Below, in pieces: positions 8,623 through 37,605 of a stretch of 64,000 nt of DNA. How positions within the stretch are numbered: position 1 is the stretch's first letter; the number at the start of each line of letters is the position of its first letter. Made by a program: the position numbers and the translations under genes. Origin of the DNA: an uncultured delta proteobacterium (GTDB lineage Bacteria > Desulfobacterota > RBG-13-43-22); NCBI GenBank assembly GCA_963790475.1, contig CAWBOS010000012.1, positions 768,001-832,000 on the forward strand, in the 5' to 3' direction. The notes under the pieces are model-generated. The model had not been told where the DNA came from. It searched no databases and saw nothing but the letters and a program-made list of their open reading frames with translations.

Positions 8623-9498
8623 ATGAAAAAAATCGCTCTATTTTTCTCTTTTTTCCTTTTCTTCCTTCCCTCAATAGTCCAGGCCCTGGCGGTACCGGCG
8701 CTTCAGGGTCATGTCAACGATTATGCCGGGATGATTTCCCAGACGCTCCGAGATCGCCTGGAAGGAGAACTAAAGGCTTTCGAACAATCCGATTCCACTC
8801 AATTGGTTCTTCTTACCGTTCCCAGTCTGGAAGGGGAACCGATAGAATCCTTCAGTATCAAAGTCGGGGAAACCTGGAAGATTGGGCAAAAAAACAAGGA
8901 CAACGGGATCATTGTGGTCGTGGCCAAGCAGGAACGGAAGATAAGGATCGAGGTCGGCCGCGGCTTGGAAGGCCGTTTGACGGACTTACTGGCCGGGAGG
9001 ATAGTGGACTTGGTTATTACCCCCAGGTTCAAAAGAGGGGATTTTGACGGCGGATTCCAGGCCGGGATTTCCGCCTTAATTGATGCCACCCGAGGTGAAT
9101 TCAAGGCCGATGAAGGACAAGGGGCAAGAAGAGGTAAAAGGGCCCCGTCTTTCTTTACTCTTCTTATTATCGGATTTGTTGCCCTGTTATTTATTGGAAG
9201 CCTTTCCCGTATTATTGGTGGTATTGCCGGGGCCGTAGGTTTGCCGGCCTTGATTCATCTGGGTCTTTTCCCCTTAGGAATTGTAGGATTGATCCTTGCC
9301 GCCCTGGCCGGTTTGGGAATAGGCCTGTTTCTTCCCTCCCTTTTTTCCGGTACGGGGGTGGGAAGGGGAGGTGGCTTTTGGACCGGAGGCGGATTTTTCC
9401 CTCCCGGCGGTGGTGGCTGGGGCGGCGGGGACTCGGGAGGAGGTTTCGGCGGTGGAGGAGGGGACTTCGGCGGCGGTGGCGCGTCGGGGGACTGGTAA
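8623..9498 (+). CDS. TPM-domain (YgcG-like) membrane protein
   Basis: HVNDYAG, DNGII, RIEVGRGLEG, Gly-rich tail GGGDFGGGGASGDW. Confidence 0.9.
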   Translation: MKKIALFFSFFLFFLPSIVQALAVPALQGHVNDYAGMISQTLRDRLEGELKAFEQSDSTQLVLLTVPSLEGEPIESFSIKVGETWKIGQKNKDNGIIVVVAKQERKIRIEVGRGLEGRLTDLLAGRIVDLVITPRFKRGDFDGGFQAGISALIDATRGEFKADEGQGARRGKRAPSFFTLLIIGFVALLFIGSLSRIIGGIAGAVGLPALIHLGLFPLGIVGLILAALAGLGIGLFLPSLFSGTGVGRGGGFWTGGGFFPPGGGGWGGGDSGGGFGGGGGDFGGGGASGDW

Positions 9499-9566
9499 AA
9501 TCAATTGCGGATTTCGGATTGCGGCATTTAGATACCGGTATCCGTATAGCCTTTTTAAATAAAGGG

Positions 9567-9759
9567 TTTCACCGCAGAGCCGCAGAGGACGCAAAGAAGA
9601 TAATTTGTGTTTGCCGGTGAGAGGCCGGCAAACACAAAACTTCGCTACCCTGCGGGTAATTATTTGGGCGGAGGCCAGAGTTGGTTTGCTCAATCCCGCC
9701 TCTCACGGGATTGAGCAAAAAAAAATTCTCTCTGCGCTCTCTGCGACTCCGCGGTGAAA
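9567..9759. repeat. Structured intergenic repeat, copy A (kissing-loop MITE/ncRNA-like)
   Basis: Imperfect terminal IR (TTTCACCGCAGAG...CTCCGCGGTGAAA). Hairpin 9604-9638 has loop TGAGAGG; hairpin 9685-9719 has loop CCTCTCA. Homologous to 35762-35940. Confidence 0.85.
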
Positions 9760-9815
9760 AACATTTTCTCTTAAAACCAACTTGATGCGGAAAAATAATT
9801 TAATCGGTTGAAACT

Positions 9816-10445
9816 ATGAAAGCAGCCATATTTTTCACCTCAGAAGAAAAGGAACGGATCAAGACCACAACTCATTCGGTGGAATCCCGAACCGATGGAG
9901 AGGTCGCGGTCATGGTGGTGGACCAAAGCGATCGGTACCCGGATGCCGAAATCCTGGGGGGAATCATTTTTGGAGGCCTCCTTTCCTTGGTGGTCTCGGA
10001 TTTATTCTTTGATGACTCCCTTTTTTATTTCATTCCCTTAAGTTTTATCCTCTTTTTCCCTTTTCGATGGATCGGGGCCACGTTCCCTTGGCTGAAACTG
10101 TTATTTGTCGGACCTCACAGGAAAAAGGAAGCCGTTCGCCGAAGGGCCGTTCAGGCCTTTTATGAAAAAGGACTTTATAAAACGAGATTTCATACCGGCG
10201 TCTTGATTTTCCTTTCCTTGCTGGAACACAAAGTATGGATCCTGGCCGACGCGGGCATTTATGAAAAGATGACCCAGGAAACCTTAAATCGATTTTCCCA
10301 AGAAGTCTCCTTGGGGGTCAAAGAGGGCCGGGCTTGTGAGTCCTTGTGCCAAGCCATAGAAGGAATAGGCCGATTGTTGACCGAACACTTCCCCTTCACT
10401 CCTGGATATATCGATGAATTGCCGGATGAAGTGATGACTGAATAG
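9816..10445 (+). CDS. TPM-domain (DUF477-like) membrane protein
   Basis: ESRTDGEV, TGVLIFLSLLEHKVWILADAGI, ELPD; usual third gene of lemA-TPM-TPM. Confidence 0.85.
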   Translation: MKAAIFFTSEEKERIKTTTHSVESRTDGEVAVMVVDQSDRYPDAEILGGIIFGGLLSLVVSDLFFDDSLFYFIPLSFILFFPFRWIGATFPWLKLLFVGPHRKKEAVRRRAVQAFYEKGLYKTRFHTGVLIFLSLLEHKVWILADAGIYEKMTQETLNRFSQEVSLGVKEGRACESLCQAIEGIGRLLTEHFPFTPGYIDELPDEVMTE

Positions 10446-35679: not shown

Positions 35680-35761
35680 GAGGGTATCATGACCTTTTGG
35701 TTAAAAGAATATATCAGGTGTAAATATATCGTACCAACATAGGTATATGAAAAAGGGCTTT

Positions 35762-35940
35762 TTTCACCAGACGCTGAGGACGCAGAGAAGATAATTTATT
35801 GATTGCCGGTGAGAGGCCGGCAATCAATAAACTTCGCAACCCTCTGGGTATCTTTTTGGCCAAAAGGCCTGAGCAGTGTTGAACAATCCCGCCTCTCACG
35901 GGATTGTTCAACAATAATTCTCTCTGCGTCCTTTGCGTCT
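35762..35940. repeat. Structured repeat copy B (interrupted by IS110; remainder at 37541-37551)
   Basis: Hairpins 35795-35831 (loop TGAGAGG) and 35877-35913 (loop CCTCTCA). The terminal CTGCGGTGAAA is displaced to the far side of the IS. Confidence 0.85.
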
Positions 35941-35984
35941 GGTTTATTGTTGTCAAGAGTTTTTTAAATATTATTAAACAAACT

Positions 35985-36165
35985 GGTAACTATCTTAGAG
36001 TGACACCTTGCCCAACTCTGGTAATTTGAGAGTCTCAACAGAGCTCTAACCTTGCTTTATTGGGGTTAAGGTGCAAGCGGAGAGTTATTTAAGCTCTGCG
36101 AGAAGGTCGACTTAGTCGCCTTAGATGCCGCAAACGATAATCTCTCCGCTTACACGCTAAGAAGG
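35985..36165 (-). ncRNA. Candidate bridge RNA/seekRNA in the 3' non-coding end (boundaries approximate)
   Basis: Two stem-enclosed internal loops, each with an apical hairpin, carrying short matches to target and donor flanks (see findings). Confidence 0.7.
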
Positions 36166-36166
36166 T

Positions 36167-37426
36167 CTAAGCAGCCAGTTTTAACGTTGCTCCTTTTGAA
36201 TAATTTTCCATATATTCGTTATGATCACGCACCAAGGCAAAAATAACACCGAGAAGCTTCCGGGCAATGGCTACCAGGGCCTTGATCTTGGGCATTCCTT
36301 GATCCAGATGCCTTTGATAGGCCGTATGCATCACTCCCCCTTTTCGAACCGTATTGATAGCGGCAAAAAAGAGGATTTTCCTAAGAAGCGACCGGCCTCT
36401 TTTGGATATATGACGATTCCCTTGGTGCCTTCCAGAACTGATTTCAAAGAGGTTCAGTCCGGCCAACTTCAGGACTTCAGCCAGCGTATGAAATTTACGA
36501 AAATCCCCGACTTCTCCAATCAGTCCGGCGGCGGTAACCTCTCCTATCCCTTTCAAGGACAGAATCGAATGACTATAGGGGATCTCGGGAAGAAGGGCCG
36601 CCATCTCCTGTTCCGCCTTCTCAATAAACTGGTCAGAAGATTCAATCTCAGAAAGAAGTTCTCGTATCTCAAAAAGAATCGCCTTGCGGCCTTCTTGAAG
36701 ACCTACGGAATGGCCAGCGGCCGCATAAAGGGCCGGGGCTCGCTCTTTATCCAGCTTCCCTCGGCTAACCCGTCTCAGCGTGGCCCTCAAGGTCCCAAGA
36801 CCACATTGGATAATATCTTCCGGGCACGGATAATGCCGCAACAGATATTGGGCACTGCGGGTTTTAATATTCTTCATCACTTGCAGAAACTCGGGGAAGA
36901 CAATAAAGACCAAATCCTGAATCTGGTTCAAAAGGCCCGTTCGTCTTCGTATGGCTCTCTCCCTGGCATGGGTCAGTCGGCGAAGTTCAGCTGCCGCGCC
37001 TTCGGGAATGACCACGGTAAGGGCATGACCCAGCTCAATAATATCCGCAATGACTTTGGGATCTTTCCTATCCGTCTTATTGGGCGAGTTACCCTGGACT
37101 TCCTTCAACTTCTTCGTATGCATAGGATTAACCTGAACCAGTGTCACCGGCCGTTTCATCAGAAAATGTTGCAAGGGTTCTCCATAAGACCCGGTGGATT
37201 CAAAACCAACCACGATTTCTTCCAAGTGATTGGCCTCTTTGGCCTCAACCATCCGATTCCAAAATTTCGTAAATCCTTGATCATTATTGAAAAACTCAAA
37301 AGGTTTGATTTCCGTCCGGTCTGGACAGCGGCCATATCCCATATTGGTCGTTTTGCCTATGTCCACGGTACCGATAAGGGTTTTTTCATTGACCTTCTTA
37401 AGTTTTTTTGTTTCAATCTTATTCAT
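36167..37426 (-). CDS. IS110 family DEDD transposase/recombinase
   Basis: GTVDIGK (D), GFESTG (E), KTDRKD (D,D), GIG..TA..LIGE, SSG (Ser), ISKRG, ARKL. Confidence 0.95.
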   Translation of the reverse strand: MNKIETKKLKKVNEKTLIGTVDIGKTTNMGYGRCPDRTEIKPFEFFNNDQGFTKFWNRMVEAKEANHLEEIVVGFESTGSYGEPLQHFLMKRPVTLVQVNPMHTKKLKEVQGNSPNKTDRKDPKVIADIIELGHALTVVIPEGAAAELRRLTHARERAIRRRTGLLNQIQDLVFIVFPEFLQVMKNIKTRSAQYLLRHYPCPEDIIQCGLGTLRATLRRVSRGKLDKERAPALYAAAGHSVGLQEGRKAILFEIRELLSEIESSDQFIEKAEQEMAALLPEIPYSHSILSLKGIGEVTAAGLIGEVGDFRKFHTLAEVLKLAGLNLFEISSGRHQGNRHISKRGRSLLRKILFFAAINTVRKGGVMHTAYQRHLDQGMPKIKALVAIARKLLGVIFALVRDHNEYMENYSKGATLKLAA

Positions 37427-37605
37427 GGCTATACTCCTTTCCTTGGTTTGGGTTTAACCAACTTGCAAATTGGACCTCAAATCAAGAAAGAGTATAGCCT
37501 TTTTTGTACGGCTTAACTACTTTCTAAAATATAGCAAGCTCTGCGGTGAAATTTCGTGTTTAAAAAAGCGAAATAGATACAAAAAATAAAACTTGGAGGT
37601 GACTT

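Follow-up and report, generated by a model that had tools for sequence, protein, structure and literature searches.

Bacterial non-coding transposable elements (MITEs) tied to DDE insertion sequences include the Correia elements of Neisseria and MITEAba12 of Acinetobacter. Insertion sequences (ISs) of the IS66 family are summarized in ISfinder as having GTAA ends and 8–9-bp repeats, and IS4321 and IS5075, of the IS1111 group, reportedly insert in the inverted repeats of Tn21-family ends. REP sequences are palindromes of 20–40 nt with a conserved 5′ tetranucleotide and form inverted doublets. An excerpt of PMC12898284 describes ISDge4, a single-ORF member of the ISBst12 group of the IS66 family, whose ends are GTAACTGCTCAGCA and GTGACTACTCAGCA and which has an 8-bp direct repeat. 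REP sequences are classic targets of IS110-family elements, which also target transposon inverted repeats, and the IS1111-like pattern places a guide RNA in the long right non-coding end, as outlined in an excerpt of PMC11208160.

The window analyzed here is a stretch of 64,000 nucleotides from an uncultured delta proteobacterium, in which a preliminary description had singled out a repeat of ~190 bp. This repeat is very probably the inner part of a non-coding transposable element (MITE) of ~250 bases that is scattered through this genome, of an uncultured sulfate-reducer type, and through its relatives. MITEs are already known as a class; what is found here is a family of them whose core is rich in hairpins and internally mirror-symmetric. 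Like the Correia elements and MITEAba12, its members are small and gene-less, have terminal repeats matching those of an IS, are flanked by a duplication of fixed length, and occur in dozens of intergenic copies that are present at some sites and absent at others. They differ from both in that their cargo is mirror-symmetric, carries four covarying hairpins and is unrelated to the interior of the matching IS, and in that the same ends bear several unrelated cargos. The features of the two window copies are as follows.

9538–9788, + strand: MITE copy 1, whole element, 251 bp; its outer ends fit the family terminal motif
9538–9566, + strand: left outer terminal inverted repeat of copy 1; starts GTATCC, family consensus GTAWCAnTTTAGnTnTTTGAAA
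9567–9599, + strand: left inner repeat block of copy 1; three CGCARAG heptads, conserved in the family
9604–9638, + strand: hairpin 1 of copy 1; 14-bp stem TTTGTGTTTGCCGG, loop TGAGAGG at 9618–9624
9647–9657, + strand: small hairpin ACCC-TGC-GGGT of copy 1, from sequence reading and covariation
9666–9676, + strand: second small hairpin of copy 1, mirror image of the first; consensus GGCC-GGA-GGCC, imperfect in copy 1
9685–9719, + strand: hairpin 2 of copy 1; 14-bp stem TTTGCTCAATCCCG, loop CCTCTCA at 9699–9705
9726–9759, + strand: right inner repeat block of copy 1, mirror of 9567–9599; contains the IS110-family target site
9760–9788, + strand: right outer terminal inverted repeat of copy 1, with the family end motif
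35731–35940, + strand: left part of MITE copy 2; outer end, inner block, both hairpins and most of the right inner block
35795–35831, + strand: hairpin 1 of copy 2; same plan as in copy 1, other stem, fully paired
35877–35913, + strand: hairpin 2 of copy 2; same plan as in copy 1, other stem, fully paired
35941–37540, − strand: IS110-family insertion sequence, 1598 bp plus the repeated CT core, splitting MITE copy 2
36167–37426, − strand: IS110-family transposase gene, 419 aa; Pfam DEDD_Tnp_IS110 (PF01548) and Transposase_20 (PF02371), 2.5e-24 and 1.6e-20
37541–37580, + strand: right remainder of MITE copy 2; end of the inner block and outer terminal repeat

Both window copies carry the two 14–15-bp hairpins, with loops TGAGAGG and CCTCTCA, that had been reported, and their stems indeed differ in sequence between the copies while staying fully paired. 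The ACCC-N3-GGGT mini-hairpin and the outer inverted blocks (9567–9599 and 9726–9759, a pair of inverted blocks of 33–34 nt) were correctly described for copy 1, and copy 2 has the same parts: its core spans 35762–35940, the final 11 bases pick up again at 37541, and its whole extent, insert included, is 35731–37580. The limits first given to the element hold for this inner part, but the unit runs ~29 bp further on each side: conservation within the family extends that far beyond the earlier limits, to the inward-reading motif GTAWCAnTTTAGnTnTTTGAAA, which places copy 1 at 9538–9788. Its 251 bp are in line with the other family members bounded by terminal inverted repeats (250–259 bp). The ORFs across copy 1 are chance frames only and the element holds no gene. 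The observation that both copies stand between co-oriented + strand genes was also correct, as judged from the flanking ORFs. Copy 1 sits between two TPM-domain (PF04536) genes, at 8623–9498 (+) and 9816–10445 (+), the upstream one encoding a protein with a long glycine-rich tail at its end.

The two window copies are real but are not the only ones. Across the whole genome (6.34 Mb in 20 contigs), iterated nhmmer searching yielded ~97 loci of the repeat family, 41 of them near full length and 75–85% identical to copy 1; as the assembly is listed as 100% complete and 9.68% contaminated, a second, related organism may have contributed to these counts. Every locus matches the family profile on both strands with near-equal scores. 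When 40 related genomes were searched with copy 1 by BLAST, the family was present in 20 of the 20 other genomes of the same taxonomic family, in 13/13 genomes of the genus and, elsewhere in the phylum, in only 2 of 20 other families. Scanned for the exact pattern of the hairpin-2 core, the species collection yielded 51 loci, all in uncultured Thermodesulfobacteriota/‘Deltaproteobacteria’ MAGs plus one MAG labelled Pseudomonadota. Searches of the open-access literature on MITEs in connection with IS66 and target site duplication, and on MITEs in Desulfobacterota, returned no earlier description of the repeat family.

Related cores (subfamilies B, C and D) have different flanks and loops, and some stand in tandem arrays. 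Since some cores lack the outer ends and those of subfamilies B and D bear different flanks, the core may be a repeat module of older origin that came to be captured by ends of the IS66 type. Tandem core arrays that resemble BIME clusters and have no IS66-type ends lie at C6:225665-231165 and C15:9095-9556 (C numbers denote contigs of this assembly), with a unit of three CACAGAG heptads and a hairpin with a TGAGGGG-type loop. A further subfamily, of 142–146 bp, has two adjacent hairpins and asymmetric flanks. At C10:300876-301142, C12:1541404-1541590 and C15:632564-632791, the relatives carry the MITE and this genome carries other palindromic repeats, such as units based on TAGACTGAAGGCTGAAGG plus its complement. 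Several unrelated families of intergenic repeats abound in this lineage.

The outer 22–29 bp at each end of the element, starting GTAWCAnTTTAG, form its terminal inverted repeats. The end motif matches the genome 90 times at up to 3 mismatches, and at up to 4 mismatches it forms 26 close inverted pairs that bound elements of 79–398 bp. The 8-bp flanks of these elements agree with 0–2 mismatches in 18 of 26 cases, six of them exactly, whereas the adjoining outward 8 bp, taken as a control, do so in 2/26. The flanks of copy 1 itself do not match over 8 bp and give no recognizable duplication, by which its insertion looks old. The same ends also enclose unrelated inner sequences, including a minimal element of 79 bp with an exact 8-bp duplication, and one transposase may serve several MITE families. 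Elements with other cargo, the same outer ends and 8-bp duplications lie at C6:333933-334162, C12:228491-228734, C15:472246-472481, C1:20874-21040, C6:553317-553486, C12:1225001-1225162 and C10:476786-476864; one such family measures 162–170 bp and has CCCCCTTTTTCAAAGGGGG-type hairpins, and another is the 79-bp minimal element.

We compared the flanks of copies from other genomes with this genome and observed at least six sites at which a relative carries the element and this genome does not (L002, L003, L017, L021, L030 and L047), together with at least four orthologous sites that are filled in both. At L003 the empty allele retains one copy of the duplicated word. At L002 the flanks are 94–95% identical and the length difference, ~335 bp, is larger than the element plus its duplication; not all junctions are clean, and some of the presence/absence differences could be deletions. 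Terminal repeats, an 8-bp duplication, a small non-coding multicopy unit, ends shared with an IS and insertion polymorphism together place the family among MITEs of the DDE type. Of the identities first offered for the repeat, that of a non-autonomous mobile element is therefore the one upheld, by IS66-shared ends, 8-bp duplications, high copy number and the filled and empty sites.

The IS with matching ends is found in congeners. An element of ~2.0 kb in four of them encodes, in a single DDE_Tnp_IS66 ORF, a protein of 511–535 aa, with Pfam matches of ~3e-33 for two of the proteins, and terminates in GTAACAGTTTAG and the corresponding reverse complement; L110 and L111 show both ends, and L109 and L108 one end each. 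In L110 the 535-aa transposase is encoded at 613–2220 and is preceded by a small ORF. The first 12 nt of the MITE family consensus equal both ends of this IS66-family IS. Against a link, the match spans just ~12–14 nt, and the MITE core is unrelated to the IS interior. Also against it, the 8-bp duplication of the IS itself was not seen in L110, the sole copy with both flanks visible, where the flanks GAAACCAC and CTTCTGAC differ; the other copies meet contig ends or are truncated. DDE_Tnp_IS66 matches occur in 12/20 genomes of the family. In this assembly, the domain search recovered only a 139-aa ORF fragment with a weak IS66 match, a blastn search with the congener IS had no hit, and tblastn with its transposase returned just the same weak 139-aa fragment. 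A candidate transposase, matched to the repeat through its ends, is present in congeners, but no intact copy is present here. Likewise, no long element bounded by MITE ends with a matching duplication was found in this genome, except MITEs holding an IS110-family insert.

The arrangement resembles the IS66/ISBst12 group, for which ends starting GTAAC and 8-bp direct repeats are given in the ISDge4 excerpt (PMC12898284), and to which the single DDE_Tnp_IS66 ORF of the candidate partner corresponds. It differs in that the window element has no transposase, the assembly has no intact partner and the partner's own duplication was not seen. We infer that the DDE transposase of such an IS66-family IS, of the single-ORF ISBst12 type that makes 8-bp duplications, would move the gene-less MITE in trans. 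With the partner in congeners and no intact copy in this assembly, the copies in this genome, 75–85% alike, look mostly old and stranded.

The break in copy 2, which had been noted to resume at 37541, is a 1.6-kb insertion of the IS110 family. A TnpB/IS605 identity for this insert was considered and is ruled out by the IS110-family transposase domains. The genome holds 10 copies of the IS at 99.9–100% identity (for example C13:271179-272778 and C6:14567-16166), and all 10 occupy the target ...TTTGCGTCT|IS|YTGCGGTG, with CT on both sides. Nine lie inside MITE copies, one of these in the mirrored left block, and one at a look-alike site. The uninterrupted orthologue of copy 2 in another MAG (L031) reads ...GCGGCT-CTGTG. 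Near-identical IS copies within MITE copies that are 75–85% alike point to a recent, site-specific invasion of old repeats by the IS110-family element. As in the IS1111 group (IS4321, IS5075), this is an IS with a DEDD transposase, a short left end (114 nt, non-coding) and a long right end (226 nt, non-coding) at a fixed position and orientation in the inverted repeat of another mobile element; unlike in that group, the host is a MITE and the site lies in the inner repeat block, not at the very end. The right end folds into a long structure with a 7-nt match to the target (TTTGCGG), which is no more than suggestive of an IS1111-type guide (bridge/seek) RNA carried there.

To follow how the hairpins vary, we placed 65 distinct copies from several genomes in one alignment with a structure that we specified. 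The claim of compensatory stems is borne out: double changes occur at 11/14 stem pairs of hairpin 1 and at 6/12 of hairpin 2, as well as at 3/5 and 4/5 pairs of the first and second mini-hairpin. None of 500 shuffles reached the covariation score of the whole structure, and 89.9% of cells are paired in it, versus 40–44% when the 3′ partners are slid by 1–3 columns. An independent RNAalifold run also arrived at the outer portion of the hairpin-1 stem, at most of hairpin 2 and at some of the inner-block pairing. In the putative ‘outer stem’ formed by the inner blocks, the heptads are kept and the variable positions are mostly unpaired (for example, in 42/65 copies at one position and in 30/65 at another); the behaviour of the blocks is that of a recurring sequence motif rather than of a helix.

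Stem variation consists of a few discrete, old alleles that different species share and that have been recombined. One orthologous site has an entirely different hairpin-1 allele between genomes, with 9–10 compensated pairs, and inner blocks that differ at 4–10 of 58 positions, which suggests that the hairpin was replaced as a whole through conversion or recombination. In four close orthologous pairs, 12 stem changes break a pair, 2 are compensated and 6 produce a wobble; the proportions of changed positions are 4–12.5% in stems, 5–14% in inner blocks and 12–34% in linkers. Orthologous copies are ~85–92% identical, versus 82–89% for the flanking coding DNA. The contrast between stems and linkers and the conservation of the copies hint, from these four pairs, at constraint or gene conversion beyond plain decay. 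Template-switch correction inside palindromes is a known mutational route. For the stems to be kept paired, either hairpin formation in ssDNA or RNA would have to matter, or template switching within the palindrome would restore pairing. The pattern seen in this small sample is accordingly open to several roles for the hairpins, being compatible with their selection in transposition, with template-switch correction or with some host use.

One form that host use could take is a domesticated MITE whose core acts in cis on neighbouring genes, as stable RNA stem-loops in operon transcripts or as a heptad protein-binding array. This reading, which is compatible with the MITE origin, is possible, if rather unlikely. 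Orthologous copies persist across species at an identity near that of the flanking coding DNA, and their stems and inner blocks change less than their linkers; yet the comparison comprises four close pairs, stem changes in them mostly break pairs, and many orthologous sites lack the element altogether. Gene context, judged with a rough codon-usage gene finder made for this analysis, places 33 of the 41 full copies between co-oriented genes, usually less than 100 bp from both. Within these 33, the element has the same orientation as the flanking genes in 13 cases and the opposite one in 20, with no bias, so an orientation-specific RNA role is unlikely. A terminator reading was rejected after giving only weak pattern matches, and the hairpins have no terminator-like tail on the coding strand, which also speaks against domestication. 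In one groundwater metatranscriptome run, 4% of the sampled words were present; the five contigs obtained, 85–95% alike and at a depth of 3–5, stem from other copies or relatives and perhaps from DNA carry-over, none being from the window copies, and they are uninformative on the transcription of these copies. A more elaborate version, in which the core would be a selected module in operon spacers, an exapted MITE acting on neighbouring transcripts whose shared 7-nt loop serves RNA loop pairing or one host or transposon protein, appears doubtful.

It is quite improbable that the repeat is instead a REP/BIME-like mosaic, moved or maintained by a Y1 (RAYT-type) transposase that reads ssDNA hairpins, to which the IS66-like ends would be secondary. 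Covarying stems with conserved loops are what ssDNA hairpin recognition would produce, and the related cores without outer ends, also in tandem arrays, fit a mosaic of this kind. The genome has 20 Y1_Tnp matches, including four proteins of 285–328 aa that are not of the IS200 kind and may be REP-associated transposases. Their genes are at C12:179921-180778, C6:222996-223961, C11:140133-141047 and C6:805628-806614; the proteins combine a Y1 domain with a long C-terminal extension, unlike the multi-copy IS200-type genes of 168–189 aa. Hairpins of the MITE type (perfect stems of at least 8 pairs) are absent within 700 bp on either side of these four genes, and the reading is therefore left without direct support. 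The two 35-nt hairpins of the element, separated by 45 nt, stand in inverted orientation to one another and differ in their stems. REP, BIME and REPIN systems share with the MITE the intergenic palindromic units, compensated stems, mosaic modules and the role of IS110-family landing site, REP being the classic IS110-family target in the PMC11208160 excerpt. The MITE unit, in contrast, greatly exceeds a REP doublet in size and complexity, has no neighbouring Y1 gene that we could link to it, and bears shared DDE-type ends with 8-bp direct repeats, which favour DDE transposition of the full element.

The complementarity of the two loops, on which the preliminary description had built a selected loop–loop pseudoknot and possibly a new structured ncRNA, most likely has a simpler source. 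The 190-bp core is an inverted duplication: its left arm and the reverse complement of its right arm are identical at 69 of 99 aligned columns, with an alignment score of 33, whereas 300 shuffles averaged −15 and did not exceed 5. In the alignment, heptads face heptads, each hairpin faces the other hairpin and each mini-hairpin the other mini-hairpin, with TGAGAGG opposite TGAGAGG, and each arm consists of three CGCARAG heptads, a T/A-flanked hairpin of 14–15 bp (loop TGAGRGG) and a mini-hairpin of 4–5 bp. The loops would be complementary because both arms are diverged inverted copies bearing one loop motif; this requires no selection, and the matching loops most likely derive from the mirror symmetry of the element.

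Variation among the 65 aligned copies agrees with this interpretation. The loops had been called invariant, which holds between the two window copies only: at position 5 of loop 1, 29 copies have G and 26 have A, so that one of the proposed pairs varies on one side only (AU 26, GU 29). Over all 7 pairs we counted 2 compensated cells, versus 3 unpaired sequences at one position and 7–9 at each of the other six; where the loops vary, pairing is lost rather than compensated. Loop 2 is inverted in one copy (L034) and loop 1 in another (L041), and several copies have hairpin 1 replaced by hairpins with unrelated loops. At least 7 Watson–Crick complementary loop bases are present in just 9 of the 59 two-hairpin elements of the genome, and a further 25 of the 59 have TGAGGGG opposite CCTCTCA.

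As an RNA, copy 1 (9538–9788) has a predicted folding energy of −111 kcal/mol, compared with −67.7 ± 4.4 in 200 shuffles (z = −9.75). The absence of a known Rfam family was confirmed: the whole window has 0 matches at the gathering score, and a permissive scan of 9500–9830 gave only eukaryotic microRNA and snoRNA models far below threshold, the best, a microRNA precursor, at 26.4 bits against a cut-off of 140. Some observations would suit a repeat kept for its tertiary fold, as RNA or ssDNA with two loops kissing by 7 base pairs: the loops are among the better conserved parts, 53–60 of the 65 copies having the prevalent pair at six of the seven positions; the frequent A/G exchange in loop 1 would still allow a G–U pair in RNA; one copy of a subfamily with GAGATA and TATCTC loops is again complementary, and another copy has GAGGTA and CACCTC; and elements in short spacers between co-oriented genes would be co-transcribed. 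Such a fold is nevertheless highly improbable, given that arm symmetry yields the complementarity unaided, that varying, inverted and unrelated loops lose it, that no Rfam family matches, and that 20 of the 33 placements run opposite to the flanking genes, where the G variant becomes a C–A mismatch.

Read as a MITE, a striking structured repeat is explained as ordinary mobile DNA, and about a hundred loci per genome in an uncultured lineage are spared misannotation as a new RNA gene. Its defined ends, target duplications and filled and empty sites provide markers for comparing MAGs. The IS110-family element, with its 10/10 site preference, offers a natural case of a MITE used as a landing pad, and its target sequence can be compared with the RNA encoded in the right end of the element. 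The conservation of the stems and the retention of whole copies at orthologous sites leave a modest chance that the family has a function for its host.
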